Shown in pieces: positions 10,241 through 61,131 of a stretch of 64,000 bases of DNA (positions are counted from its first letter, which is position 1; the number at the start of each line of letters is the position of its first letter). The notes below the pieces were generated by a model that searched no databases, was not told where the DNA came from, and was given only the letters and a program-made list of their open reading frames with translations. Location: contig CAWJZV010000034.1 in assembly GCA_963847445.1 (NCBI GenBank), forward strand, positions 256,001 to 320,000, given 5' to 3'. The DNA is from an uncultured delta proteobacterium. Its GTDB lineage: Bacteria > Desulfobacterota > Binatia > UBA9968. Position numbers and translations under genes: made by a program.

Positions 10241-10741
10241 CTATCGCGATTTCTTCAACATGAAGTCCAAATCTTCAGAGAGCGACTGGAGATCCTCCTC
10301 GTGCGCCACTTCGTCCTGAAGAATTTGCAAAACCATATTGTAAGTGACTGGGTCTTTTGTCTGAGTCGCCTCCAAAAGTTTCTTGTAAAAGCCAATGGCG
10401 CAGCGCTCGCCCTTGATGTTTTGGCTTAGGATAGTCTCGACGAACGGGTCATCGGGCGCGTCGTAGCCGCAACTGGTCACGTCATACCATTTTTTCGGCT
10501 CGGCCACCGGCGTGCCGCCGAGCTGGATGATCCGGGCCGCGACCATGTCGGCGTGACGCAACTCGTCGGTAGCATGTTGCAGCAATTCGGCGATCACCGC
10601 TTCTTTCATCGGACCCTTCACGACCTTGGCGCCCAGCCAGTATTGGTAATAGGCGAGCCACTCATCGGCGAACGCCATATTGAGCAGCTTCAACAGTTGT
10701 TCCACGTCCATGCCGACAATTTCTCTTCCTTTGGTGCCCAT
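10241..10741 (-). CDS. DPS-like (DPSL) ferritin-superfamily protein
   Basis: MGTKGREIVGMDVEQLLKLLNMAFADEWLAYYQYW, DELRHA, GERCAI and DEVAHEE di-iron motifs. An AGGAG RBS precedes ATG 10741. Confidence 0.9.
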   Translation of the reverse strand: MGTKGREIVGMDVEQLLKLLNMAFADEWLAYYQYWLGAKVVKGPMKEAVIAELLQHATDELRHADMVAARIIQLGGTPVAEPKKWYDVTSCGYDAPDDPFVETILSQNIKGERCAIGFYKKLLEATQTKDPVTYNMVLQILQDEVAHEEDLQSLSEDLDFMLKKSR

Positions 10742-10829: not shown

Positions 10830-10892
10830 AAGAGCCCGCGCTTCGCCGCAAACGCGAAACGCCGGGCTCTGGGTTCGTGACCGCTGGCCTCT
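10830..10892 (-). promoter_or_regulatory. Leader RNA element, copy 1 (GA[AG]NCC repeats plus hairpin)
   Basis: Minus strand AGAGGCCAGCGgtcacGAACCCAGAGCCCGGCGTTtcgc...gcgaagcgCGGGCTCTT. The core is near-identical to 19486..19556. Confidence 0.7.
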
Positions 10893-10907
10893 TGGTTTAC
10901 TTGACAA

Positions 10908-10923
10908 AGCACTTAGTGTGCCA
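10908..10923 (-). promoter_or_regulatory. sigma54-type promoter upstream of DPSL
   Basis: Minus strand TGGCAC-ACTAA-GTGCT (GG-N10-GC). Confidence 0.55.
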
Positions 10924-11137
10924 CGGCCAATGGCGGATTATCGACGCCGGATCAAAGACAAATTGTCATTGTTGAAAATTTGCGCTGCAAAAAACTTCAA
11001 CTATGGGAATCGCCGGTGTCTTTGGTTTCTGGCCCATAGCTATGTTTGACAGCACGATCTCGAATACAAATCTTTGCTTAGCGATCATCCCACTTGCAGC
11101 TCTAATCGTTAGTAGTGGTGACGGTCGTCGGAGCTCG

Positions 11138-11816
11138 TCACTTTGATTGCCAAACTATTCCGTCGGTTTGAATAAACGAAAGCGACGATATGTGGCGCGT
11201 CCGGTTGAATTTTTCGCTCGCCACTGCCGCCGGCCTTTTCGTCAAAGTGAGTTACTTCCAATACGTAGCGACCTGCCCAGGGCGTCGGCAGAGTGACACG
11301 GCCCTGTTCGTCGGTGGTTAAAGGCTTTTCCCACTTGGACGGTCCGATGATCGTGAGTTCGGCTTTCGCAAGCGGTGAACCGAGAAAAATTAGCACAAAG
11401 GTTTTGCCGTTGGCTTCTGTGGGCACTAACTCCAAGTCGAGCTTCGCCGCGGTTTCCGTACGCCCATGCTTGGCGTAATAGATCGTCTTGGTTGTGCCGC
11501 CCTTTTCGTTGTCCTCGCGCGCTGGGACGCCGCTGTCGACGAAGCGCACGTCGCCAGCTCCCTTGGCTGGGAATTCGAGGTTGTTGTCATTGCGTTTGAC
11601 CTGAAGCGGCTCGTTGCTTGCGCCGACAATGACGCGCGGCGCTTTGAATCGGTCGAGCAGCCCGCCGGTTTTTTCGCGGATATCGTCGATCCATTCGCCA
11701 AAATAGGCGCGCGCCGGGCCGTCGCCGTCGCGTTCGAGCCAGACGAAATGAGCCTGGGCACAAGGAGTTAGCAACAATGTGGCGGCCATTATCATGAGAG
11801 AAATGAACTTCAACAT
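11138..11816 (-). CDS. DUF4198-like periplasmic metal-uptake protein (frameshift near C-terminus)
   Basis: Signal peptide ending AQA|HFVWLE, plus TTDEQGRVTL and GRYVLEV. Confidence 0.75.
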
Positions 11817-11835
11817 GGGAGATCTCCTGGAATGT

Positions 11836-12426
11836 CTATGCCGACAGAGTGGTGCGTTCAGATTTTTCGAGATGCGCCAGCACGCCGTCGAGCCAATGCT
11901 TGGCCGGCGCGTCGTAATCGACGTCGCAATCGACGCGCGGATGGATGCGAATGCCACCGTGGCGCTCCAGAGCGGCGTCGAAGTCGCGGCCACACTTGCA
12001 GAAATGATCGTAGGTGGTGTTGCCGAGGGCGAGCACGGAAAACTTGACGCCGCGCAGATCGAGGCTATTGCCTTGCACCACCGCTTCCCAGAACGGCGCG
12101 GCATCGTCAGGCGGCTCGCCGTCGCCGTAGGTGCTGATCACCACCAGTACGCAATTTGACTGCGTCAACACGCTGGGTTGGCAGTGCGCGATGTCTCGTA
12201 CCCGAGCCGTGACGCCGGCACGGCGCAACGACAGCGACAGCTTATTCGCCAGCAATTCGGCGTTGCCGGTCACGGTGCCGTAGAGAACCAGCACTGAATC
12301 GCCGTTGTCGGGCGAGGTCTGCCACTCGCCGTGAACTTCCTCATGGCCGTTGTGCGTGTGGCCGTTGGTTGCATTGGAGCTAGTTTGTTCCATCTCGATC
12401 CTCGCTAGGTCGTTTTGATGTTTCAT
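11836..12426 (-). CDS. Flavodoxin domain (CysJ-like), probably the C-terminus of the PepSY-TM protein
   Basis: LYGTVTGNAE, STYGDGEPPD, LALGNTTYDHFC. It overlaps the PepSY-TM ORF by 47 nt. Confidence 0.85.
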   Translation of the reverse strand: MKHQNDLARIEMEQTSSNATNGHTHNGHEEVHGEWQTSPDNGDSVLVLYGTVTGNAELLANKLSLSLRRAGVTARVRDIAHCQPSVLTQSNCVLVVISTYGDGEPPDDAAPFWEAVVQGNSLDLRGVKFSVLALGNTTYDHFCKCGRDFDAALERHGGIRIHPRVDCDVDYDAPAKHWLDGVLAHLEKSERTTLSA

Positions 12427-13657
12427 TGCTCTGCGGCACGGTTTGCATGACTTCGGGACTGGCTTGCACCGGCGCGGTTACATATTCCACGGTGGTTGCG
12501 TCTTCGGCATCGCGTTTACGATAGCGGAAGCGCCGCCAAGCCATGGCGAAGCCGGTCCAAACCAGGAAGCAGCCGCCGAGCGACGCCAGGCCGGCGACGG
12601 TTTGGCCGGCGAAACCGAGAGCCTCGCCGGTGTGAAGACCGCGCACCCAAACTCGCAGCTTTCGTCCCGGACTGGCGGCGGCGTAGGGCTCCCATTTTAT
12701 GACTTCGGCGCTGGAGCGATTGAGCGCCAGTTGCGAGCGCGCGAAAATATGCGGCGCTGTCGGCTCTTGAATCAAGACCGTGACCGGGCCATCGCCGCGC
12801 GGCGGCAGGCGCATCATCATCATGATCCAACCGGGAGCTTGCTGATCGGCGCGCGCCAGGAAGGCATCGAAGCTTGCCATCGGCTTGCGCTCGCGCGCCT
12901 CTGTGCCCGCGCCGCGCCGCTGCTGCGCTTGAGCCGCAGGGCCGGGGGCTTGCGCTCTTGGCGGCGGCTCGCTGCCCGTCAATGTGTAGAGCAGATCGTT
13001 GGCCCACGGATAAGACATCACCGCCGCAGTGAGCGTGAGAATGATGAGCACCGACGACGACCAGAAACCGATGACGTTGTGCCAGTTCCAGTCGCGCGCT
13101 TTGCCGCGGAGGTGGAAATTGAAAAGGAGGCTCGGCTTCAATCCCCGCCAATGCCAACTGCGCGGCCACCAGAGATAGACTCCGGTAAGCGCCAGCCAGA
13201 AAAACGCTAGGTTGCAAGCACCGGTGATGGCGCGCGCGGTGACACGGCCTTCGCCCTCCGTGCCGAGCCAGCGGTGCCAATCGACGACGTCGTGAAACCA
13301 GTCGTGCAGTTTCGATTCCGAGCCGAGGATCGCGCCGGTATACGGATTCACGTAGGTTGCGCCTTCACGACCGAAGCCGACGGCGACGGATGCGGTCGGT
13401 TCGTTGCGCAGGACCACGCCTGTGGGCTGGGCTTTGGGATTCTGCGCGCGCGCCTTGGCTACCAGTTCATCCAGGCTTATGCGCTGCGCATTGGCAGCCG
13501 GCGGCACGACCAAGCGCACGTCTCGTTCGGCGTATTCGACCAGTTGGTGCTCGTACATCAGGATGACGCCGGTCGCCGACATGATGAAGATGACGGTGCC
13601 GCCGATAACGCCGGCGAGCAGGTGGGACCAAAAAATGATTTTATGCAGCAGCTTCAT
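12380..13657 (-). CDS. PepSY-associated TM helix protein (PiuB-like)
   Basis: FWSHLLAG, YVNPYTG, WHRWL, TGVYLWWPR, WHNVIG, LHTGE. Confidence 0.9.
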   Translation of the reverse strand: MKLLHKIIFWSHLLAGVIGGTVIFIMSATGVILMYEHQLVEYAERDVRLVVPPAANAQRISLDELVAKARAQNPKAQPTGVVLRNEPTASVAVGFGREGATYVNPYTGAILGSESKLHDWFHDVVDWHRWLGTEGEGRVTARAITGACNLAFFWLALTGVYLWWPRSWHWRGLKPSLLFNFHLRGKARDWNWHNVIGFWSSSVLIILTLTAAVMSYPWANDLLYTLTGSEPPPRAQAPGPAAQAQQRRGAGTEARERKPMASFDAFLARADQQAPGWIMMMMRLPPRGDGPVTVLIQEPTAPHIFARSQLALNRSSAEVIKWEPYAAASPGRKLRVWVRGLHTGEALGFAGQTVAGLASLGGCFLVWTGFAMAWRRFRYRKRDAEDATTVEYVTAPVQASPEVMQTVPQSNETSKRPSEDRDGTN

Positions 13658-13673
13658 GCCGTCTCCTCGGGCG

Positions 13674-14204
13674 CTAGTTGGTCTTGCCGGCCTTCAGAAC
13701 ACCAAGCTCGGCGCGCAGCCAGTCGCGCAAGATATCCTTTTCGTAGCGTAGATAGTCTTCTCTCGGGTAAACGCTGCGGAGTTGGTAATTGATATCGGTC
13801 AAGTCGCGTTTGCCGGATTTGACCACCGTCGCGGCGCTATCGATGATCTCGAACTCAAGCACGATGTGGGGCGGGTAGAGACCTTTGACGATGCGCACTT
13901 GGTCCGCTTGCGGACCGCGAAACAATTCGAAGTCGCCGGCGAGGTCGATGTCGGTGATCCGGATATTCAGTTTCATATTCTCAGGGATGTAGCGCGCGCC
14001 GGTCGTGATGATGAACTTTTGCAGTTCGCCGACGATGCCCGTCGATGTCGGCTCCAGCTCGGCGCGGCGCGCGTCGGTGAATTTCTCCGGTTCGATGAAG
14101 GCGACGGAGATCCGCGCGGCGGATTCATCCACCGGCGCGGCCGCGGCGCAGCCGGCAACCAGCACGAGGCCGATGGCCGAGATCATTCTTGATCGCCTAT
14201 TCAT
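13674..14204 (-). CDS. DUF3016-like lipoprotein
   Basis: Lipobox VAGC, PEKFTD, ITDIDLAG, YPP, LRYEK. Confidence 0.75.
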   Translation of the reverse strand: MNRRSRMISAIGLVLVAGCAAAAPVDESAARISVAFIEPEKFTDARRAELEPTSTGIVGELQKFIITTGARYIPENMKLNIRITDIDLAGDFELFRGPQADQVRIVKGLYPPHIVLEFEIIDSAATVVKSGKRDLTDINYQLRSVYPREDYLRYEKDILRDWLRAELGVLKAGKTN

Positions 14205-14205
14205 G

Positions 14206-14886
14206 TCACACCTCCGCGAAGCGGCGCAGCAAATTGTGATAGCAATTGGTCAGCTCCACCACGGCGCCGTGATTGGGCAGAGCTTGATTGACTTTGTTGA
14301 TCGCCATATCGAGATCGAAAAGCAGAGTTCGAGTGCCGTCGTCGCGCACCATGCTCTGCACCCAGAAAAACGACGCGAGACGAACTCCCCGCGTCACCGG
14401 CTTGACGTGGTGCAGGCTGCTCGCCGGATAAACCACCATGTCGCCGGCGCCAAGCTTGACCGCGTGGGCGCCGTAAACGTCGTCGATGACCAGCTCGCCG
14501 CCGTCGTAGTCTTCCGGCGCGCTGAGAAACAGCGTCGCGGAAATATCCGTGCGCACGCGCAGCGGCGTGCCGGGAATCTGCCGGATGGAATTGTCCAGAT
14601 GCGCGCCGAAAGATTCGCCGCCTTCGTAGCGGTTGAATAGAGGCGGGAAGACCCGGAGCGGCAACGTCGCCGTGATAAACAGCGGGTTGCGCTCCAGGGC
14701 CGCCACGATCATGTCGCCGAGCTCCCGCGCCTCCGGGCTATTCTCCGGTAGCTGGCGGTTGTCCTTGACCACGGCGGATTGATACCCCGCGGTCACGCGG
14801 CCGTCGATCCAGCCCGCGCGCTGCATCACTTCACGGCAGCGCGCGAGCTGTTCGGGGTTCAGGACATTGGGCACTTGGACGATCAT
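14206..14886 (-). CDS. piuC: PKHD-type Fe(II)/2-oxoglutarate hydroxylase (PiuC/YbiX)
   Basis: [43 protein letters not shown]. Confidence 0.93.
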
Positions 14887-14900
14887 TTTTTTCCGACTCC

Positions 14901-17118
14901 TTAGAACTTGAAGCTCGCGCTGCCGATGAACGTGCGGCCCGCGCCAGGCAACGACGTGTCCCCGCTGAGACTGTCGAATAGTAATGGTCGTTGGTCAGAT
15001 TGATCGCGTTGACCCGCAATTGGAATATTCTTGTTGAGCTGGTACGCCACCGTCGAATCCCAGCGAACATGATCCGGGACACGGGCGATTGTTTGGCGGC
15101 ATTGTTGTAATCGACAGCCGACATAGGTCGGGCCGCCGCCGATTTGCCATTTTTCGAGAAAGTCGTAGGTGACCCAAACGTTCGCGCTGTGCGTCGGCAC
15201 GTTGGCGAGTTCGTTGCCGATGATGGCGGGGTTGGTGTCGATTTGCGAATCTTCGATATCGAGGTATGTGTAACCGCTAAAGATATTCAAGCCGGGGAGA
15301 AGGCGGCCAGAGAGCCCGAATTCGACACCCTGTGAACGCGTGCTCACCGTCAAGCACATTAGCGTCCGCGGTCGGATCAATCGGATTCGGTGTACACGGG
15401 CATCGGTTTTGTCGATTCGAAATACCGCGCCTTGCAGATTCAGGGCTCCATTGAAGAATTCCAGTTTGCCGCCGATTTCGAAGGTTCTGTTTTTTTCCGG
15501 AGGGGCACCTGTCGGTGTTAGGTGCCAAGGGCATGGCTTCGGCGGAGGGATTGAACGCGGTGCGCATAGGAGAAATAGTAGCTCTGTGACGGGGTCGGGT
15601 GAAAGATCAGACCGCCTCGATAACTCCACATTCGATCTGTCCGACCCAGGTCCGAACGAGCCGTTATCGCGCCAGTGGTATTATGCGTGATCGTGTCAAA
15701 GTCGTTGTCGAAGTAATCCCAACGGACGCCGCCGACGAGATCGAAATACTGGTTTAGCTTGATCTGATCTGCGGCGAAGATGCCGAAACCGAAGGCACTG
15801 CCGTCTGCGCGACTCGATACCGAGCGCGACATTCCCGCGGTACTGGCAACTGATTGTGGTTGGGATTGTTGAGCGTTGTGCCGGAGGCACTCCGACGAAA
15901 GCGTAGTGGTTCGTCGAAGGTCTCCCGCGATACCTCCAGCCCGGATGTGACTGTGTGATTGAAACCGAAGGTGTCGAACTTGGCGGTAAGATCCGTTTGG
16001 TTGCTCAGAATGCTTTCCTAGGTATCGCGCTGCCGGTCGGCTTCCGGTGAACAGGGTCGGGGATGACATTGACGCGTGGCGCTTGGTTTCGTGAATCCCG
16101 GTCGACGTGGCTGTAGCGGAGGGTGTTCCGCAAGGTGAACATATCGTTGAAGCGGTGATCCAACCGCGAGGTGCCGATATTCACCGTTGTTTCTTCGTTG
16201 TCTTCATTGGCAAAGCCATAGAAGTTCTTGCGGTCGATGCGTAACGGACGGCCATTCTACGTACGGAAAACCGTAATCAGGAATATTGTCTTCAGCTTGA
16301 AGCAGGTAGCTCAATGTTAGCTGCGTCGGCGTGCCCAAGCCGAACGCAGATCGACGGCGCAAACCCCAGCCGCTTGCTGCTTCGATCTTGTCGCGTTCCA
16401 CGAACATCGTCTTTGTGGGCCATGAGGTTGATGCGGAAAGCCGCATGGGCAGCCCTGGGGAATCGGTTGGTTGACATCGATGGTGCCGCGCAGGTAGATC
16501 CGTTGCCGCCAACGCTAAAAATGCCGTCGTAGCTCGGGGTCGAGTTGAGGAACTTTGCTGACCTGATTGATCGATGCCGCCGGTGGAGCCACGACCGAAG
16601 TATAGGGAGGACGGTCCTTTTAGAACTTCGACGGATTCGAGATTGAACACATCTCGAAAATAGGAGCCCGGAGTCGCGCACCCCGTCGATGATACATGTC
16701 GTTGCTCGCGTTGTAGCCCGCGCAGCGTCAAGTTGTCGCCTTGAACCGCCGCCTTCGCCTGCACGGAAACGTAATACCAGGCACGTTGCGCAACGCATCG
16801 CGCAAGGTCGCAGCCGGCCTGTTCTTCGATTAATCTTCTGCGGCATCACGGTAATCGACTGCGGCATGTTTTTCAGTGGTACGGGAATCTCGATAGGGAC
16901 GATTGCGGCACTACATAGGGGCTATCTTGATCCTGCACCACCACCGGCGGCAGGGTAATCGGTTCCTCTTTTTTCGGCTCCGCCGCGCCTGCGTGGCTTG
17001 CCAGCGCAAAGCTGAAAGCCATCGCCTTGCCAACTCCTTCACCGGCGGCGAGACAGATTTTTTGGAACGCTGTCTTGTTATTTTTTCTTTCGTTCGCGCG
17101 CTTTTGTTGTCGACTCAT
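14901..17118 (-). CDS. TonB-dependent siderophore receptor (PiuA/Fiu-like), heavily frameshifted
   Basis: Fragments across frames: ITLPPVVV (TonB box), [48 protein letters not shown], and C-terminal [14 protein letters not shown]. Confidence 0.88.
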
Positions 17119-17138
17119 CTCATCCTCCATAACGTTAG

Positions 17139-17192
17139 GGTTGCTTGATTGGCTGGCTTTCCACGTCCGGAGGGCTGGATGGCTGGCTGGGT
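17139..17192 (-). promoter_or_regulatory. AGCCAGCCA direct repeats between hemP and the receptor (candidate HemP/HmuP-responsive element)
   Basis: Minus strand CCCAGCCAGCCATCCAGCCC...AAAGCCAGCCAATCAAGC in the receptor 5' UTR. Confidence 0.55.
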
Positions 17193-17395
17193 CAGAAATC
17201 ATTTACTTTCGTCAAAATCAGTTTGCCGTTTCTGGTGATGCGCAGGTTGTATTCCTCCTTTTGGTGCACGATGACGATCTCGCTGTTGCCTTGAAACAGG
17301 TGATTGCTTTCGATGCGCGGCTTTTTCCCGGACGGCGCCGAGCTGCTCGGCGTGACCGTTCGTTTGGTAGCGAAATTCACAAGCGTTTCTCCCAT
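17192..17395 (-). CDS. hemP: HemP/HmuP family small regulator
   Basis: IESNHLFQGNSEIVIVHQKEEYNLRITRNGKLILTK is the HemP signature. An extra A likely removes the natural stop. Confidence 0.9.
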   Translation of the reverse strand: MGETLVNFATKRTVTPSSSAPSGKKPRIESNHLFQGNSEIVIVHQKEEYNLRITRNGKLILTKVNDF

Positions 17396-17403
17396 GGGTC
17401 TTC

Positions 17404-18238
17404 CTAGTGCAGTTCGAACTTCACCGGCAACATCACCCATACCGACACCGCTTCTTTGCCCCGGCGGGCCGGCTCGAAGAGCCATTTTTTAACCGCTTCC
17501 ACAGCGGCGAAATCGAGATCGCGAAAACCGGCGGACTGATCGACCATCACTTCGCCGACCCGGCCATTCTCCAACACGCGGACGCGCAATGTTGTTACGC
17601 CCTGCACACCAGCTCTTCGCGCGGACTCGGGATAGCGCGGCTTGACTTGGTAACCGCCGAGTGGCCGAGCCAGACCCGATAGTGCTTCTCCGGAGCCCGC
17701 GCCGCCGCCGGTGCCGTCGCCCTTGGCGCCTCGACCCAGTCCCGACGCGCCTGTGCCGCCGCCACCGCCGGCAACGCCGCTGCCGCCGACCACGCCCACA
17801 TCGCCCTTGCCGAAAAGATTGCCGGCACCGGCGGCGCTGCCTTCGGCTTCGGCCGCGCTTGCGACGCCGACGTTCCAGCCGGCCTTGGCGGCACCGGTGT
17901 TATCCGGTAGCGAGGCGAGCGGCTGTTCGACCGGTTTCTCTTTGACTCTCTTCCTTGGTGTTGCCGGTCGGCGGCAGCGGGCTGGTTTCGAAAACCGGTT
18001 TGGATAGAAGCTTCGGCGCGGTGATATTTTGCAGCTTGGGTTTGGGCGCTGGAGGAGGCGGAGGCGGTGTGACCTCGACTTTCTTCGGTTCCTCGATGCG
18101 CGCCACATCCACCAGCTCAATCGGTACCATGGCGGGTTTAATCGGTTTGGCGTGCATCACCAACGCAGCCAACGGAATTATGCCCAAATGAATCAACGAC
18201 GACGCAGTGAATGAAGATACCAACCAGCGCTCGTTCAT
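17404..18238 (-). CDS. tonB: Energy transducer TonB (frameshifted near 17950)
   Basis: TM segment SSLIH, Pro-rich linker, and C-domain PRYPESARRAGVQG...WLFEPARRG...PVKFEL. Confidence 0.92.
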
Positions 18239-18648
18239 TTTTTCTGCTCCTTCGGTTTTACCGCGATGGCCATCTTTGCCACGTTGGCGCCGCGGGCGAT
18301 GTCCATGACTTCGACCACCTGGCCGTGCTGAACGCCGTCGTCGGCGTTGATGACGACCAGCATCTCGGCATTCTTCGCAAGTTGCTGGCGCAAAGCTTCA
18401 CCGAGAGCCGCTTTGTCGATCGCTTGCTGGTTGAGAAACAACCGGCCGTCTTTATCGATCGTGATCGCCGCGCTCTCGGCAGGCGCCTGCTGGCCGGACG
18501 CCGCCTTGGGCAGATTGACCGGCATGCCTTTGAACTGGGTCATCGACAAGGTCGAGATCATGAAAAAGACCAGTAGAAAAAAAATCGTGTCGATCATCGG
18601 GATGATCTCGATGCGCGCTTTCTTGATGCTGCGGCGTTGAATGCGCAT
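18235..18648 (-). CDS. exbD: Biopolymer transporter ExbD
   Basis: IEIIPMIDTIFFLLVFFM, VNLPKA, INADD..HGQVVEVMD. Confidence 0.95.
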   Translation of the reverse strand: MRIQRRSIKKARIEIIPMIDTIFFLLVFFMISTLSMTQFKGMPVNLPKAASGQQAPAESAAITIDKDGRLFLNQQAIDKAALGEALRQQLAKNAEMLVVINADDGVQHGQVVEVMDIARGANVAKMAIAVKPKEQKK

Positions 18649-19256
18649 TAATGCTTCCCCGCATGTTCATGCAGCAACAATTCCAGCGAAGAGCTGAAGT
18701 GCTCCATGCGGTCCATTTCGCGCTCGACCTTGGCGGTGAAGTAGTTGTAGGAGACCAGAGTCAAGATCGCGATCAACAAGCCCGTGGCAGTCGCGATCAG
18801 CGCTTCCGCGACTCCGCCGGTAATGGCGTGGGGTTGCCCCATGCCCGCTTCCGACATGACATCGAAGGAGCCGATCATGCCGACGACGGTGCCGAGCAAT
18901 CCGAGCAGAGGGGCAAGCGTCACGATGGTGTCGAGAATTCCCAGGCGGCTTTTAAGCACGGGAATCTCGGCCTGCGCCAGAGCTTCCATTGCCTTCGCCG
19001 GCGCGGGATTGCGGTGGGCGATACCCGCTGCTAAAACCCGCGCGATTGGCTGGCTGGAGTTCTTGCCCAGGTTTAAAGCTTGTTCGAATTCGCCCTTTTC
19101 GACCAATGATAAGATTTGTTGTAGGACATCTTTCGTTTTCAGTTTGGCCCAAAACACAAACCGTTCGATGGTGAGCGCGAGTGAGATCAAGGAGCAAGCG
19201 AGCAGCGGGATCATGACGATGCCGCCTTTGATGATGATTGCAATAAATGCCGACAT
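18648..19256 (-). CDS. exbB: MotA/TolQ/ExbB proton channel
   Basis: GGIVMIPL, APLLGLLGTVVGMI, GVAEALIATATGL. Confidence 0.95.
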   Translation of the reverse strand: MSAFIAIIIKGGIVMIPLLACSLISLALTIERFVFWAKLKTKDVLQQILSLVEKGEFEQALNLGKNSSQPIARVLAAGIAHRNPAPAKAMEALAQAEIPVLKSRLGILDTIVTLAPLLGLLGTVVGMIGSFDVMSEAGMGQPHAITGGVAEALIATATGLLIAILTLVSYNYFTAKVEREMDRMEHFSSSLELLLHEHAGKH

Positions 19257-19258
19257 GA

Positions 19259-19472
19259 CTATTGGACCAGACCCTTTCTTTAGCTCGATGTGACTTTCCG
19301 TTTCACTTAGTTCGTTACTTTCGGCGACGCTTTGCATGGCGAGACCAAGTTCGCGCAGGTCGTCACGGGCGATATGCAGGACGACGCTGCCGTAGTGAAA
19401 ATGGGCGGTGTCCTGGCTGCAATTGCAAAGCGAGACCGACCATCTGCCGTTGGATGATTTGATTCCGTACAT
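19259..19472 (-). CDS. Small (~70 aa) Cys/His-containing hypothetical protein heading the exbB operon
   Basis: GGAGG RBS, then MYGIKSSNGRWSVSLCNCSQDTAHFHYGSVVLHI. Removing one base near 19272 gives ...KKGLVQ* just before the exbB ATG. Confidence 0.6.
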
Positions 19473-19485
19473 TTTGACCTCCAAT

Positions 19486-19556
19486 AAAAAAAGAGCCCGA
19501 GGTTCCGCCAACTTTTCGCGGAACGCCGGGCTCTGGATTCTAGATCGCTGGCCGCT
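19486..19556 (-). promoter_or_regulatory. Leader RNA element, copy 2, with intrinsic terminator (attenuator)
   Basis: Minus strand GCGGCCAGCGatctaGAATCCAGAGCCCGGCGTTccgc...gcggaacctCGGGCTC-T7, directly before the RBS. Confidence 0.75.
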
Positions 19557-19565
19557 GACTAGGGT

Positions 19566-19618
19566 TGTATATTCAAATCATAATTATTTGTCAATACTAA
19601 TATAAAAATATTAGTATT
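19566..19618 (-). promoter_or_regulatory. sigma70-like promoter with palindromic operators
   Basis: Minus strand TTGACA-N17-TATACA. CAAATCATAATTATTTG (19574-19590) lies over the spacer, and a perfect inverted repeat AATACTAATAT-N4-ATATTAGTATT spans 19593-19618. Confidence 0.6.
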
Positions 19619-19675
19619 AACTAATAATAATTCCTAAGCTATTGAAGATATACTCATTTAATCATGCCGAGTAGC

Positions 19676-19897
19676 CTATATATTTCCCAAATCTGCTTCG
19701 GATGCCGCACCATCCTGATTATCGCGGCCCTCGGTACTGAGGGGAATCACTACCCGGCGTTTGCAGCGGCGACACTTGAGCTCCACGCCTTCGGGTACCA
19801 AGCGCGCGAGCAAGCTACCGCAATGGCAGCGGAGCGCATCGCCGTCCTTAGTCACCGTCCCCGCCGTTTCCTGTTCGCCTTGCCTTGGAATACGCAT
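19676..19897 (-). CDS. Com-like zinc-ribbon protein
   Basis: LRCHCGSLLARLVPEGVELKCRRCKR matches the RC..C..LLA...EIKC.RC pattern of the Mu Com family. It abuts the FTR1 stop. Confidence 0.7.
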   Translation of the reverse strand: MRIPRQGEQETAGTVTKDGDALRCHCGSLLARLVPEGVELKCRRCKRRVVIPLSTEGRDNQDGAASEADLGNI

Positions 19898-21887
19898 TTA
19901 AGCCACTGCCTTATTTCGTTCATGCGCCATCCATAATGAGGTAGCTATAAATATGCCGACCAATAGCCCCTGGGCTGCCAGGGTTTCCATGGTCGGATAG
20001 ATACCCAACAGCGGCACCGCCGGCGGAAAATTGAGCGGCGTCGCCGGAACCCAGCCGGCCGCCTGCAATTGATTGATGCCGGTGCCGGCGAAGATGAAGG
20101 CCATGATGTAGAGCAGTGTGCCGGTGACGCCGAAGAAAGTATTTTAGCGGTAGCGCAGGCCGAGCTTGAAGATCGCAAAGGTAGCCGCGACCAGCGCGAC
20201 CAAGCCCGCGGCGAATCCGCCAAGGATGGCCTGGTGGCTGATTTTCATTCTGTAACCAGAGCGCTTGATAGAAGAGCACGACCTCGAAGGCTTCGCGGTA
20301 GACAGCGAAAAATGAGATGCCGATGAGTCCGAAGATACGTCTGCGTCGAAAGCACGTTTTGCACCTTGTCTTGAATAAATGCATGCCACCGTTTTAGCCT
20401 CGGTCCGGGTGTGCAGCCAATAGCCGACATAGAACAGCGCCGACGCAGCGAAGATCGAAATGAATCCTTCCATGCTTTCACGGTGCTGGCCGCTGAAAGT
20501 CAGCACGGTTTGGGCGGCGAGCCAGGTGAGGAAACCGGCGGCCAACTGCGAGAATCCAGCCGAAATGGATGTAGCGAATCGATTTTGTCGCGCCCATAAC
20601 CCGCAGCATGGCGATGATCGCGGCGAGAATCAGCGCCGCCTCGAGTCCTTCGCGTAAAATGATCAGGGCCGAATTCAAGAATGCGTAATAACCGGAGAAA
20701 TCATCGCTGCTGGCCAACAGCTGTGCCGCCTGGTCGAGCTTGGCTTCGATTTCGCAGCGTGTTGTTTTTGAATCTCCTCGGCGGAAACTCCCTGCCGGAT
20801 CGAATTGCGAAACTGGGTGAACTGGGCCTCGAGAGATCTGTCCCAAGGCCGCATCCTTGGCGAACAGCGTCGGCTCGGCCATCTCGATAGCCGTCAAGGT
20901 AGGCCTCGATGGCTTTTTGGTAAGCTTTTTCCTTATCGCCTTTGCGTATATCTCAGCGGCTTCGCCGAGCAGGGTCGCGGGCGATCAACAATGGATCGGT
21001 CGATTTTTCGTCCAGAAGCCCGCGCCTGAGGTAGGCGAGAATGTCGTTGCTCGGCGCGTTGGGAAAACTCTTCTTGATTTTATCGGATAGCTCGCTCGTC
21101 TGAAGAAGTTGCCAAGGTCGCGACGCCTGCGAGTCGGCCGGCAGCGACTTGCCTTTCAGCCAGGACTCTCCGCGCCGGCTTTGCCGTTCGTCAGCGGGAA
21201 AACGCAGCGCCAAAACATAGAAGGCGACTTGCCAGCGTTGCTCGTCCGGCAGCGCGGCGAAGGAAGCCATCGCCGTTTTGTCGATGCCGAACTGGTCGTG
21301 TTGTAGACTTTAAAAGGCGAGAGTCCGGCCATGAAGTCTGCGTCGGTGAAATTGGCCGGCGGCGGGGTTTTGGGATTCATCGACTCGCGGCCGGGGCCGT
21401 CGCCTTTGCCGCTCTCGCCATGGCACTGAGCGCAATTCTGCGTGTAGACGAGTTTCGCGCCGCTCGAAGTTCGGCAGAGCCTTGGGGTAGGTGACGATAT
21501 TATAGGTTTTGATCAAGCGGTCCTTGATCTGCTGGGCCAATTGCGGCACGGCATCTTCGCCGGTTTTATCTTGTATATGCTTCGCCAGCGCTTGCAGATC
21601 TTTTTCGATGCCCGCTTTATCGCCTTCGGCGGATTTGAGTTGGTTGAACAGCTCCGAGCTGCGCGCCGAGAACTCGCTCATCTCCGATACTCGTCGGCGT
21701 TGACAACTTTCCCGCCTTGCACGGCGTTGCGATAGTCGCCGCCGATGTAATCGATTAGCGCCAGAATTCGCTTGGCTTCGTCACCGGCAGCGAATGCGCC
21801 GGTCGCCGTTAGAATGATCAGCCCAAGGAAGAGGAAGAACCGACTGCACATGACTCGTGTCGATCTGGTCGCGGAGGATGAAGCCAT
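19898..21887 (-). CDS. Cytochrome c / FTR1 family iron permease (PbrT-like), multiply frameshifted
   Basis: LIDYIGGDY, CAQCHG heme motif (21420-21440 region), ILREGLEA and VYREAFE (two REXXE motifs), LLGIYPT. Confidence 0.88.
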
Positions 21888-22014
21888 AGTGGTCGTATAT
21901 GTAAGGAGCCGAACTTTATCAAAAATTCTTTTGTCCAATAACATTTCAGGTCGATTCTTTGCGCCTGCCCGGAGCCGTAAACGGGTTCGCTCGTCTCCCG
22001 CAAGGACGGCTCAG

Positions 22015-26436: not shown

Positions 26437-27102
26437 ATGGAAGCACATAAAGTAACCCACGCCTTGGAGGACTATCTGAAGGCGATTTACCAGCTAGCCG
26501 AGGAGGCTCAACCGGTGATCGCCGCGCGCATCGCCGCCGAGACCGGGGTGACGCCGTCGACCATGTTCGCGACGTTGCGTCGTCTGGCTAGTGAAGGTTA
26601 CGTTACGATCAATCGCCGCAAGGAGATTCATCTGACCGAAGATGGACGAAAAGTCGCTGAGCGGATCGTTCGCCGCCACTTTCTGACCGAGCGTTTTCTA
26701 ACCGACTTGTTGGGATTGGACTGGGTCAAAGCGCATCAGGAGGCTCATCGGTTAGAGCACGCGATCTCTCAGGAAGTCGAAGAGCGCCTGGCTAAGCTGT
26801 TGAGCAACCCGACCACCTGTCCGCATGGCAACCCGATTCCCGGAACCGGCTCCGGTAGACTGCCCAAGACCGTGCCGCTCAGCGAAGCCGTGGACGGCCA
26901 GCAAGTGGATCTCGACTATATTACTGAAGGCGGCGAACGGGATGTTCGCCTGTTGGGGTTTTTAGAGGATCACGGACTGGTGCCGGGCGCCAAAGTGCAT
27001 ATTATCGACGTCGCGCCGTCCCTCGGCATGATGACACTGAAAGTCGGCGACGATCAGTTTTCTCTTGGCATCGAGGCGGCGAAGAAGATCCGCGTTCACT
27101 AA
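26437..27102 (+). CDS. DtxR/IdeR/MntR family metal-dependent repressor with FeoA domain
   Basis: EDYLKAIY, RRHFLTERFL, EAHRLEH, CPHGNPIP. Divergent from fbpC. Confidence 0.95.
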   Translation: MEAHKVTHALEDYLKAIYQLAEEAQPVIAARIAAETGVTPSTMFATLRRLASEGYVTINRRKEIHLTEDGRKVAERIVRRHFLTERFLTDLLGLDWVKAHQEAHRLEHAISQEVEERLAKLLSNPTTCPHGNPIPGTGSGRLPKTVPLSEAVDGQQVDLDYITEGGERDVRLLGFLEDHGLVPGAKVHIIDVAPSLGMMTLKVGDDQFSLGIEAAKKIRVH

Positions 27103-58469: not shown

Positions 58470-58546
58470 CGGGGCGTAGCGCAGCCTGGTAGCGCACCTG
58501 CCTTGGGCGCAGGGGGTCGGAAGTTCGAATCTTCTCGCCCCGACCA
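58470..58546 (+). tRNA. tRNA-Pro(TGG)
   Basis: Cloverleaf, anticodon arm CCTGC-CTTGGGC-GCAGG, TTCGAAT loop, encoded CCA. Confidence 0.96.
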
Positions 58547-58637
58547 ACGAACAATGGTATGTGCTGAGCTATGAGTACTGAGTACTGTAGGGCAGAAGGG
58601 CATTCCCTTCAGTACTCAGTACTCGCTACTCGATTGG

Positions 58638-58714
58638 GCGCCAGTAGCTCAGCTGGATAGAGCAACGGCCTTCTAAGCCGTAGGTCATGGGTTCGAATCC
58701 CTTCTGGCGCACCA
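58638..58714 (+). tRNA. tRNA-Arg(TCT)
   Basis: Anticodon arm ACGGC-CTTCTAA-GCCGT, CCA end. Confidence 0.96.
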
Positions 58715-58725
58715 GACTGTTTTGC

Positions 58726-58803
58726 GGTGAGTGTAGCTCAAGTGGTTAGAGCACTGGATTGTGGTTCCAGGGGTTGAGGGTTCAAGTCCCTTCACTCACC
58801 CCA
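58726..58803 (+). tRNA. tRNA-His(GTG)
   Basis: Anticodon arm CTGGA-TTGTGGT-TCCAG, G-1 and C discriminator, CCA end. Confidence 0.96.
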
Positions 58804-58888
58804 GTTTCAATTCGGCGAAGATCGAGGATTGAGGATTGATAGCCGCAATCCTTAATGATCTATCTTCCAGATTTAGTTTGATCCGTGC

Positions 58889-58964
<76 letters not shown>

Positions 58965-59132
58965 AATTCTCTTCTCAATCTCACCGCTACTGGGCTTGGC
59001 TGCCCATCTCCCGGTCCGAGCATGGGTTGGACTAAATCGCTGGATGTTATTTATCCGCAGCAGTATGCTATCATGAGTGACGATTCGACACTGGTTTGAT
59101 CTGGCAACAATCCGAGAAACTACCTGGCAGCC

Positions 59133-59651
59133 ATGGAACAAAGCCTGAGTTATACGATGCCGATGGAGGTTCACCTGCCAGCGGCACTGGTGCGCGGTGT
59201 GCTTGAGACCAATCAAGACCGGCTTAGCAGTCATCTCCTAGTTCGCCAGGATGACCAGGTTTTCTCGCTGCGGGATGCGACCGTGGAAGATCTTACCGGC
59301 AAGCCGATTGCTAGCCGCACCAACGATTATGTCGTCTATATGCGGGAGGTTTTTTTGATCGCCGACTTGAGTCCGGCCGGCCAGTCGCAGCGCTCCGGTC
59401 TCGAGGGGCTTTATCGGAAAAAAAATATCAGCAAGGCATTGATCAGCGTCGGGACGTACTTGATCCAGGGCGACGTCTATCTGCTTCCCGGTGGCGCGTT
59501 GTACGATCTGCTGCTCGAAAAGAATCAATTCATACCGTTGACCAACGCGACGATTCTCGGTCGGCCACCCGCCCCACCCCGGACTTATTTGATCAACCGT
59601 CAAAAGATCGGCTTTATGACGGCCATCGGCGATGGTTTGGTGGAGTTCTAA
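59133..59651 (+). CDS. Hypothetical protein with internal duplication
   Basis: Two similar halves (V..RG.L...RLS.L..F.L.DAT and LIQG.V....LYDLL...FIPLTNAT). Confidence 0.7.
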   Translation: MEQSLSYTMPMEVHLPAALVRGVLETNQDRLSSHLLVRQDDQVFSLRDATVEDLTGKPIASRTNDYVVYMREVFLIADLSPAGQSQRSGLEGLYRKKNISKALISVGTYLIQGDVYLLPGGALYDLLLEKNQFIPLTNATILGRPPAPPRTYLINRQKIGFMTAIGDGLVEF

Positions 59652-59654
59652 CCC

Positions 59655-59972
59655 ATGGCCGCCTATCCAACTGAAATAAATCATGTAAAAGCGCGCGGCG
59701 TGGTACGCATCACCTGGGATGACGGCCATATAGGCGAATACAACGAGCCATATCTGCGCGGCTATTGCCCCTGTGCGATGTGCCAGGGCCATGGATCCCA
59801 GCGCCAATTCATTTCGGTGCCCGAGGCGAAGCTTCAAGAAATTCACGGTGTCGGCAACTATGCCATCGAGTTCCGATGGCATGATGGCCACAGCACCGGA
59901 ATCTATACTTTCGAATATCTGCGGACAATTTGCCCCTGCGCGGCCTGCACTCGGGCGCACGGCGACGGTTAG
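59655..59972 (+). CDS. DUF971 / GBBH-like N-terminal zinc-binding domain protein
   Basis: ITWDDGH, LRGYCPCAMC, VGNYA...W.DGHSTGIY. Confidence 0.92.
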   Translation: MAAYPTEINHVKARGVVRITWDDGHIGEYNEPYLRGYCPCAMCQGHGSQRQFISVPEAKLQEIHGVGNYAIEFRWHDGHSTGIYTFEYLRTICPCAACTRAHGDG

Positions 59973-60104
59973 TAGTTCTTGTCGGCGCCCGGGAGTGTGT
60001 TCATGTCCTTGCTTCGATTTGCCAGATGATTTCCGTCCTCTGTTCGATCACGGCGCGGCGCTCGATGTTTTATCACCTTCTGTGACCCTGCTTTTTTTGA
60101 TTTC

Positions 60105-60782
60105 ACCCCAACCTTCCCCACTGGGAGGGTAGTCGATCTAAGCAGCCAACCAAATCAACCTGCACAGCCAGAAGGTCTCCACATAAGGCTTGGAGTCGTC
60201 AGTGTACGTAACGTCGGTTGTCGCTCTGGTCGTCGGGTCGACTGGCAACAAGTGCCCTCGCGACTATCGGGTAGATCTTGCCAGTACCGAACCAAGGCCA
60301 ATTGTTCATCGAGATTGACAGGCCAACCAGCACGCGCCGTACTGGTGCGGCCGACACAGTTCCATCGCCTCAAGACGCACTCGGACTCCATGCCTCTCGG
60401 GCGTCCGCGGACAAACCCTTTTTCCACCGGGAGTAGCGCCAACTGCGTGCGCTGTTGGGTCTTTTCATCGAAGCCTTCGATCACCCGGCCCCAAGCCTGC
60501 TGCCGGCTGTCGTTGATCTTGCTCAGATACAACACCTGGCGCTGCACCACCTTGGCCCCGGCGCAGCGTTTACTCTCGACGATGTTCCAATAGCGATGCT
60601 CTTGCCGTCCGATTGCAGCGGATCTTGGTGTCTGATTGTAGCCAAAAACTCGCCCTTGATTAAGATACTTGGTCTACATTACAGCCGCTTTGAAAGTATC
60701 AGCTCTTGAAATTACGAAGCTTTTTACGCTTCAGAGTTACATAAAAATTTTGTTTCGCTGCGAGTTGGGAAAGGTGGGGTAG
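60105..60782 (-). mobile_element. IS1634-family transposase remnant
   Basis: Minus strand HRYWNIVESKRC..KVVQRQVLYL..INDS..AW..IE.FDE is an IS1634-type N-terminus that decays downstream. Imperfect inverted ends CCCCAACCTTCCCCA / TGGGAAAGGTGGGG. Confidence 0.7.
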
Positions 60783-61048
60783 TCAGGTTGAGACCTGGGT
60801 CGTTGACGCGCAGCAGTCCCAGAGTATCGACCAGGAAGGATTGAGTTTAACCGATATTAGCACTGCAGAACATTATCCAATTGCGTTATCTTAGGATGCT
60901 GAACTGCCAAGTGATCTTGGGCATGGAGTAGTTCGATCCCGATACCCGCCAGTCGCGCTCACTGCGCTTGACTTACCACCGGGTAATTCTTACTCTCCTT
61001 TCCTAGTCTGTGAAACTGGATCGAGAATTTGCAGCGACAGAAATACGT

Positions 61049-61131
61049 GCGAGAGTGGCGGAATTGGCAGACGCACTAGACTTAGGATCTAGCGGGCAAC
61101 CGTGGGGGTTCGAGTCCCCCCTCTCGCACCA
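61049..61131 (+). tRNA. tRNA-Leu(TAG)
   Basis: Anticodon arm CTAGA-CTTAGGA-TCTAG, long variable arm, CCA end; upstream of tig. Confidence 0.96.

Follow-up and report, generated by a model that had tools for sequence, protein, structure and literature searches.

Com has so far been treated as a curiosity of bacteriophage Mu and its relatives, in which it governs one DNA-modification gene. In the primary study (PMC6483171), Mu Com is described as binding a short hairpin with GAG(N)2CC repeats flanking a 3-4 bp stem and as melting the translation-inhibition hairpin that adjoins it, and the motif selected for Haemophilus sputorum Com by systematic evolution of ligands by exponential enrichment (SELEX) is given as NGAGNNCC(N)2-3GAGNNCCNN, with a 9-10-nt period. 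A related logic is described for LicT, where the protein-bound RNA site overlaps the 5' arm of a terminator and binding prevents termination (PMC5393181). Here we analysed 64,000 nucleotides of DNA (the window) from an uncultured delta proteobacterium of the Binatia (contig CAWJZV010000034.1, positions 256,001 to 320,000 of the forward strand), in which a gene for a Com-like zinc ribbon, hereafter com, and two copies of a conserved RNA element stand among genes for iron uptake and storage. We show that the element belongs to an RNA family present in several phyla and that it is tightly linked to com, and we discuss whether the protein may control the genes behind the element by binding its RNA.

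The RNA element and its distribution

The two copies of the element that an earlier sequence-only reading of this DNA had placed in the window are both present, on the minus strand (Table 1), and share the 5' block GGCCAGMGRUCNNGAAYCCAGAGCCC, including a 15/15 match (CCAGAGCCCGGCGTT); the longer string common to them reads AG-M-GGCCAGCG-R-UC-NN-GAAYCCAGAGCCCGGCGUU and is followed by the hairpin. Their inner stems differ by one compensated pair (TTCGC/GCGAA in copy 1 and TCCGC/GCGGA in copy 2), and the hairpins fold at -39.7 kcal/mol (z -2.4) and -40.2 kcal/mol (z -4.2), respectively. The 43-nt hairpin of copy 2, with the 5' arm AGAGCCCGG, runs into the U7 tract that had been reported (19492-19486; 7 U in the 8-nt tail), and a few nt later come GGAGG (19482-19478) and ATG (19472), the Shine-Dalgarno (SD) sequence and start codon lying 19 nt past the hairpin; copy 1 is without a U-run (tail UGUCGCUU, 4 U in 8 nt) and its SD and ATG are 89 nt downstream. 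A covariance model built from 22 copies (R1) scores copy 1 at 73.4 bits (E 7e-17) and copy 2 at 84.1 bits (E 1e-19). With up to two mismatches the 15-mer occurs in the window at just these two sites (4 of 100 shuffles gave two or more), and pattern search, BLAST and the covariance model agree that the 7.19 Mb genome has no third copy; such scarcity excludes a dispersed repeat, and with it repetitive extragenic palindromes and miniature inverted-repeat transposable elements.

Beyond the window, a 32-nt pattern with up to three mismatches recurs more often than chance would allow: within the genus, 13 of 30 further genomes carry 1-4 copies, against no hit for the reversed control, and the pattern was found in none of 30 genomes outside the genus. 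When one genome per species was searched (185,579 species), the exact 24-nt pattern GCCAGMGRTCNNGAAYCCAGAGCC gave 57 loci, in 50 of which R1 finds 55 full elements (39-83 bits), making 57 elements with the two of the window; the remaining seven loci (L028, L034, L040, L046, L053, L063, L075) have no hairpin or score at most 31 bits and look like chance matches within coding sequence. The carriers are, by record title, Candidatus Binatia, metagenome-assembled genomes (MAGs) titled 'delta proteobacterium', several classes of Chloroflexota, Myxococcota, Nitrospira, Bdellovibrionota and Thermodesulfobacteriota, MAG labels being unreliable in detail; two loci, one titled Verrucomicrobiia (L044) and one Syntrophobacter (L070), match element hits in the window's own genus in coordinates and scores and seem to represent those very stretches. 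From an unpublished genome (G005) comes a single row (L007) of alignment A2 and hence of R1, and this genome is counted among the 13 of 30 genomes of the genus scan. The element is thus a multi-phylum RNA family, and the 'duplicated leader' of the sequence-only reading, although correct for the two copies here, understated it. It matches no family of Rfam 15, so that a known RNA family is ruled out: in the window and 16 carrier loci only tRNAs pass the threshold, and at E up to 10 the best overlapping hits reach 12-18 bits against thresholds of 50-86. No hit was obtained for the element in 2.9 million viral contigs, nor for the covariance model in the com-mom region of Mu.

The element measures about 70 nt and is made up of the 5' block, a 3-bp mini-hairpin, a long hairpin and, in most copies, a U-run. 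The 5' block contains as many as three repeats resembling GARNCC (GMGRUC, GAAYCC, GAGCCC), which read GAAYCC-A-GAGCCC with the weaker GMGRUC upstream, around the 3-bp stem, and the last of them is the 5' arm of the hairpin, as had been observed for the two copies and as we find throughout the family. About 26 nt are conserved, while loop and inner stem vary freely. In the 57-copy alignment 97.5% of the hairpin cells are paired, a figure that falls to 55-60% once the 3' partners are slid by one column, and no shuffle among 500 attains as high a covariation score. The outer stem (AGAGCCC/GGGCUYU) is almost constant and tells little by itself. Shuffling the inner stems of 90 distinct copies gave a median z of -3.8, with 85 of the 90 under -2, and native stability was matched in 36 of 4500 shuffles. 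The mini-hairpin (G-R-U/A-Y-C, loop CNNGA) has an R-Y pair that is GC in 48 of these copies, AU in 26, GU in 16 and AC in none, counts inflated by lineage effects, and both main pair types occur within one genome (G-C in copy 1, A-U in copy 2). Because G-U wobbles make sense only in RNA, these results support the conclusion, previously drawn from the covarying inner stem of the two copies, that the conserved element acts as an RNA structure and not as a DNA operator. Recognition of the 5' arm by its sequence, with the 3' arm obliged to remain complementary, would explain why the outer stem stays invariant while the inner stem drifts. In the 8 nt past the hairpin, at least six U are found in 30 of the 57 copies, five in 12 and four or fewer in 15. 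An antiterminator made of RNA only, formed by the first CCAGMG repeat and the 3' arm, was rejected, as it has at most 4 bp and is lost when M is C.

The Com-like protein and its linkage to the element

The CxC...CxxC ORF described by the sequence-only reading is found at the end of the FTR1-like gene, whose stop codon abuts the com start codon (TAAATG), and about 120 bp from copy 2, as that reading had it. By tblastn it is the only Com-like hit in its own genome. The residues C24, C26, C42 and C45 and the core are invariant in 30 homologues, and the consensus R-C-x-C-G-S-L-L-A-R-x-x-P-x-G-V-E-x-K-C-R-R-C-K-R is almost invariant. Comparison of the 30 homologues with Mu Com (AF083977, Mu_52) in hhalign gave a probability of 91.7% (E 8e-7, 36 columns) and aligned LRC-HCGSLLARLV-PEGVELKCRRCKRRVV with IRCKNCNKLLFKADSFDHIEIRCPRCKRHII of Mu Com, and AlphaFold2 models the core as a three-stranded ribbon with a predicted local distance difference test score of 82-89, the termini being disordered (<50). 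Foldseek against the PDB returned no hit at E ≤0.001, its top matches being generic zinc ribbons with E >1, and a sequence search of the PDB yielded no Com entry and thus no solved Com structure for comparison. Taken together, profile alignment and predicted model support the assignment of the 73-aa ORF as a putative Cys4 zinc ribbon homologous to phage Mu Com, the type first proposed for it. A word-indexed search recovered 330 homologues at E ≤1e-3, and among the matches listed about 30 of 120 homologues bear the JGI name 'phage FluMu protein Com'; a hidden Markov model search of 1.84 billion representatives gave 1131 at E ≤1e-3 and 525 at E ≤1e-10. Some members of 103-199 aa (P0121, P0132, P0133, P0158, P0162 and others) contain two Com-like stretches, that is, tandem zinc ribbons, which would fit the bipartite repeats in the RNA. 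A single relative of the protein was found in the 2.9 million viral contigs, at a locus without the element. A phage origin of the locus was rejected on account of this sole viral relative, the iron-transport neighbours and the absence of the element from viral contigs, and the non-phage character that had been attributed to the gene is upheld.

The linkage between com and the element was examined from both sides. Starting from the element, a com-like ORF on the same strand stops 3-163 nt upstream in 41 of the 57 copies. In Chloroflexota the gap is 3-29 nt, leaving no room for a promoter, so that com and element must be co-transcribed; in relatives of the window it falls into two classes, about 30 nt and about 100-160 nt, the latter with a promoter-like spacer. 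Sixteen copies lack an adjacent upstream com; they include five of the DPS type, two with broken com frames (L059, L036), one that precedes a com gene (L043) and one with just 222 nt of upstream sequence. Starting from the protein, the element lies within 300 nt downstream on the same strand in 72 of 80 metagenome loci (peptide patterns; median 59 nt from the match end), three of the eight misses having less than 330 nt of downstream sequence, and its strand relative to com is identical in 72/72.

Among 61 genomes around the window, 21 have both com and the element, one the element only, two com only and 37 neither; G005 enters this table with one element and one com, and the counts without it are 20, 1, 2 and 37. 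The element-only genome (G008) has a weak, diverged orphan of 35 bits (L162, 1082-1151), and no com was found in it; of the com-only genomes, one (G002) has a weak hit with an internal stop and the other (G027) a degenerate 17-bit element after an intact com (L161, 815-883). The elements of G027 and G008 are possible decay intermediates. In 41 genomes around a Chloroflexota carrier, both occur in seven, always adjacent, and neither in 34, so that both samples, 102 genomes from two phyla, comprise 28 genomes with both, 71 with neither and three with only one. The RNA element is tightly linked to com genetically. Co-occurrence of the motif with Com-like genes in other genomes was one of the results on which the sequence-only reading had made its proposal depend, and co-occurrence is what these counts strongly show.

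There is one com for two elements in the window's own genome and up to three elements per com in relatives, which implies action in trans. One well-assembled relative (G014) has the order FTR1-like gene, com1, element, cupredoxin operon, element, com2, element, exbB operon and, later, element and DPS-like gene. Its com2 therefore has an element on either side (L163, 11738-14396), a layout hinting that the two Com-like proteins may form a cascade or a positive feedback loop.

Genes behind the element and in the window

An SD sequence with a start codon was found behind 51 elements, at a median of 34 nt from the hairpin end, and for 40 of these the distance is at most 60 nt. Genes that begin so near the hairpin must be transcribed through it and have no room for a promoter of their own. 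The identity of these genes varies with the lineage. In Binatia-like bacteria, Myxococcota and Bdellovibrionota they encode a 70-aa ORF with ExbB, ExbD and TonB; a DPS-like ferritin; a 450-530-aa protein without Pfam family, followed by FMN_bind and ApbE or by imelysin; DUF6662 outer-membrane proteins; cupredoxin with Haem_bd; a TonB-dependent receptor; and a multicopper oxidase. An HD-GYP protein gene follows the element in Nitrospira, and in Chloroflexota the cassette stands behind a TetR gene and is followed by genes for DUF6125 and acyl-CoA dehydrogenase. The acyl-CoA dehydrogenase targets point to a general regulatory cassette that is not specific to iron: the 'iron regulon' of the sequence-only reading holds for its own lineage and not for Chloroflexota.

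Table 1. Features of the window around com and the two element copies
Feature	Position	Strand	Remarks
Ferritin/DPS-like gene	10241..10741	-	ATG 10741; downstream of copy 1; Pfam Ferritin 3e-26
Element copy 1	10892..10831	-	5' block AGAGGCCAGCGGUCACGAACCC; GGCCAGCG at 10889-10882; hairpin 10870-10831
Sigma54-like promoter	10908..10923	-	TGGCAC-N5-GTGCT; upstream of copy 1; read from sequence, predicted
~70-aa ORF fused in frame to ExbB	18648..19472	-	first gene past copy 2; Pfam MotA_ExbB 4.7e-32
Element copy 2	19556..19486	-	5' block AGCGGCCAGCGAUCUAGAAUCC; GGCCAGCG at 19553-19546; hairpin 19534-19492
Sigma70-like promoter	19566..19594	-	TTGACA (19594-19589), 17-nt spacer, TATACA (19571-19566); read from sequence, predicted
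Com-like zinc-ribbon ORF (com)	19676..19897	-	73 aa; core RCHCGSLLARLVPEGVELKCRRCKR; CxC...CxxC; ends 119 nt before copy 2
FTR1-like iron permease gene	19898..21944	-	broken into several frames here; three fragments match Pfam FTR1 (2.2e-7, 0.0018, 0.0046)

From about 9 to 26 kb of the window every gene is on the minus strand. The fused ExbB gene is followed by ExbD, TonB, hemP and a frameshifted TonB-dependent receptor (TonB_C and hemP were matched), and then by genes for a PKHD-type 2OG-Fe(II) hydroxylase, DUF3016, PepSY_TM, a flavodoxin and DUF4198. The ~70-aa ORF (MYGIKS..., 19263-19472, minus strand) is without Pfam family and always stands between element and exbB in relatives. In other genomes it is separate from ExbB (70 aa and 202 aa), and at the fusion junction a relative's contig is short of 1 nt, at 19270. 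All genomes considered are MAGs of uneven quality, and the window has many frame breaks, one of them at this junction. The TonB-dependent receptor (14901-16867), TonB (17404-18238) and FTR1-like (19898-21944) genes, all on the minus strand, are each split over overlapping frames, which looks like the result of long-read indel errors, or else of pseudogene formation; the G014 equivalents of receptor, TonB and permease are single ORFs of 719, 276 and 660 aa, the last of which holds the position of the broken FTR1-like gene. Downstream of copy 1, archaeal-type DPS models of NCBIfam match the ferritin/DPS-like gene at 1.6e-22, under their cut-offs. The pairing of the element with a DPS-like gene recurs in five loci. 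Elsewhere in the window, five tRNA genes are clustered on the plus strand (58470-61128).

Both promoter-like sites that had been proposed, sigma54-like for copy 1 and sigma70-like for copy 2, stand on inspection of the sequence, the second of them not being listed by a consensus promoter scanner, which needs T at position 6 of the -10 hexamer and so misses TTGACA-17-TATACA. The sigma54-like site lies 28-36 nt upstream of the element in 5/5 DPS-type loci (four found by regular expression and L042, with TGGCAC-GTTTA-CTGCT, by eye). Past it, about 75 nt upstream of the DPS-type element, a conserved block CAACAATGACAATTT is present (about 10960-10995 in the window; also L045, L056, L042), which could be a site for an enhancer-binding protein or IHF. 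The sigma70-like site ends about 10 nt before copy 2, in an AT-rich spacer between com and the element, and relatives' copies of the exbB type have a -10-like TATAC(G/A) at equal distance. An AT-rich, near-perfect palindrome (about 19593-19619, minus strand; TAATACTAATAT-N4-ATATTAGTATT) overlaps the -35 region of the exbB promoter-like site and could be an operator for a repressor of the Fur or DtxR type; a gene for a DtxR-family regulator is located at 26437-27102. Only one of the 24 sequencing runs listed is an RNA library, holding a fraction of 0.05 of the sampled words, and two of its contigs, 90-95% alike to the window, cover only 18864-18898 and 19845-20089.

Proposed role, alternative explanations and known systems

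From these comparisons we consider it fairly probable that the Com-like protein binds the RNA of the element and controls the genes downstream, much as the sequence-only reading had proposed; those parts of its interpretation that computation can reach were all upheld. Within this reading, activation by antitermination seems to us about twice as plausible as other read-outs. We infer that the protein physically binds the GARNCC repeats, that the hairpin terminates transcription and that binding opens the hairpin rather than stabilising it. Without the protein, the nascent RNA would fold the hairpin and RNA polymerase would terminate, or the leader would stay closed; once accumulated, the Com-like protein would bind the repeats and the mini-hairpin and compete for the 5' arm, so that no hairpin would form and expression would run into the downstream genes. 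In the window's own genome com would be translationally coupled to the FTR1-type permease gene, and its product would have a cis target in the adjacent exbB-exbD-tonB-hemP-receptor operon and a trans target, at a distance of 8.7 kb, in the sigma54-driven DPS-like gene. Here the pair probably gates iron-uptake and iron-storage genes after transcription start, and the result would be a second, post-initiation lock on iron-starvation genes; where com precedes the element on one transcript, or is induced together with FTR1 as in the window, it might work as a delay or threshold device, as in com-mom.

Several observations weigh against this proposal. Fifteen of the 57 hairpins, copy 1 included, have four or fewer U in the tail, and therefore termination is not the universal read-out; effects on translation or stability would have to operate at least in copy 1 and the 14 other copies without a good U-run. 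A simple terminator scanner called neither hairpin of the window. Pfam and NCBIfam have no match for the Com-like ORF, no such protein was found by tblastn in 50,697 phage records, and its first knuckle is CxC, against CxxC in Mu Com. Each repeat (GARNCC) is one nt shorter than the GAG(N)2CC reported for H. sputorum Com, and the spacing is tighter too, the period being 7 nt against 9-10 nt; the Com motif itself, GAG(N)2CC, had been given correctly by the sequence-only reading (PMC6483171). As regards sampling, the 57 genome loci were collected with the exact motif, the 80 metagenome loci represent the closest hits to the query and include some duplicates, and the genomes within each clade are related, so that the co-occurrence counts overstate independence. 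The RNA-library contig over com is 94% alike and spans the com start only.

Four other explanations can be set against binding and control by the Com-like protein. The element could be a trans-acting small RNA (sRNA) of about 70 nt, with a 5' seed, a Rho-independent terminator and promoters of the Fur-controlled or sigma54 type, the Com-like protein being a chaperone or a mere neighbour and the downstream genes being reached by leaky read-through. Its conserved 5' end, variable stem and U-tail resemble enterobacterial sRNAs, promoter-like sequences end a few nt before it in the window and close relatives, and in some copies the next ORF is about 100 nt off. In Chloroflexota, however, the element begins 3-29 nt past the com stop and so has no promoter of its own, the SD and start codon that follow so closely in 40 of 51 elements make a separate promoter for the next gene impossible, and complementarity of the 5' block to ribosome-binding sites was not evident by eye, no target prediction having been run. 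We regard the sRNA explanation as unlikely.

Unlikely too is that the hairpin is just the intrinsic terminator or 3' untranslated region of com, with a 5' block that serves com mRNA stability or autoregulation (Com binding its own 3' end and repressing itself) and with orphans that are remnants. That 41 of 57 copies stand directly behind com, most with a U-tail, is what such a terminator would give, but the orphans before the DPS-like gene are conserved in position and sequence in five species, each with its own sigma54-like promoter, an element in G014 also precedes com2, and the downstream genes are left without promoter room. More doubtful still is a small riboswitch, in which a terminator-embedded aptamer would sense a metal ion or metabolite and com would be a co-transferred passenger. 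Across phyla the 5' block hardly changes, and it ends in the 5' arm of the terminator, a layout also seen in the HMP-PP (hydroxymethylpyrimidine pyrophosphate) riboswitch, and metal genes are the targets in the window's own lineage; yet just about 26 conserved nt and a 3-bp helix would have to build the pocket, since loop and inner stem vary, com lies upstream and so is not controlled by the element although the pair is almost never found apart, and the Chloroflexota targets are unrelated to metals. That the block is a DNA operator for the Com-like protein as a transcription factor, next to an unrelated terminator, has very little probability: some annotation pipelines do call Com proteins DNA-binding regulators, and relative to promoter-like sites of the window the block spans about +1 to +28, but it is on the same strand as com in 72/72 loci, its R-Y pair is G-U in 16 copies and A-C in none, it supplies an arm of the RNA hairpin to which it is joined at a fixed distance, its place in Chloroflexota is within an operon and not at a promoter, and Mu Com is described as an RNA binder. 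Every rival is contradicted by at least one finding, be it the Chloroflexota gaps, the promoterless downstream genes, the conserved orphans, the com linkage, or the strand and the G-U pairs. An extracytoplasmic function (ECF) sigma or other promoter as the reason for the conserved block was considered by eye and dropped, the block being inside operons in Chloroflexota.

Placing RNA binding by the Com-like protein into a wider frame, we propose tentatively, and with slightly less than even confidence, that chromosomal zinc ribbons of the Com family, together with their RNA site embedded in a terminator, constitute a portable class of riboregulators that depend on a protein and had not been described before. 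Spread over at least five phyla, they would most likely be antiterminators, and Binatia-like and Myxococcota genomes would have recruited them for iron acquisition and storage, adding a second lock to promoters of the Fur/DtxR and sigma54 types; the Cys4 site might add dependence on metal or redox state. The sister subfamily of Com comprises at least 525 clusters at 50% identity (E ≤1e-10) and is housed in the chromosomes of soil and sediment lineages not yet cultured, and its RNA partner hardly varies from phylum to phylum. Should the proposed binding be true, zinc ribbons would become a further class among the few bacterial antiterminators or activators that bind RNA, a compact switch with two parts, of about 60 aa and 70 nt, would be at hand that nature has already moved among unrelated operons, and iron-starvation control in Binatia-like bacteria would acquire a post-initiation layer. 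The protein-RNA pair is small enough for direct biochemistry and structure work.

How far the locus departs from described systems can be judged from three comparisons. Fur-controlled iron sRNAs (RyhB, PrrF, NrrF) have in common with it the iron-starvation context, a short terminator-ended unit and duplicated copies, whereas the element here has no Rfam match, is fused to coding genes, is tied to a protein gene and occurs in non-iron operons as well. The antiterminators of the BglG/LicT type with their ribonucleic antiterminator (RAT) sites follow the logic proposed here; they differ in having CAT/PRD domains where we find a zinc ribbon, and there is no input from a sugar phosphotransferase system here. 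A term search of a 2025 review of RNA-binding antiterminators gave no occurrence of 'zinc', 'zinc finger', 'zinc ribbon', 'Com protein' or 'phage Mu', and our literature search gave no account of chromosomal Com-like regulators or of this RNA motif, which supplementary motif tables of RNA-discovery papers may nevertheless hold. The third comparison is with com-mom of Mu. As there, a small Cys4 zinc-finger protein with a disordered tail is encoded directly upstream of the controlled gene with the RNA site between them (here in 41/57 and 72/80 cases), and GA...CC repeats surround a very short stem beside an inhibitory hairpin. Unlike com-mom, the cassette here is outside phage and has cellular operons as targets, its hairpin is terminator-like and does not contain the start codon, and one protein appears, judging from gene counts, to serve several sites in trans. 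The opening of an mRNA hairpin by a Com-type zinc finger is known from phage Mu. New here are a chromosomal, multi-phylum subfamily, a conserved RNA partner of its own that Rfam lacks, a hairpin resembling a terminator, the multiplicity of sites for one protein and targets that are cellular and largely iron-related.

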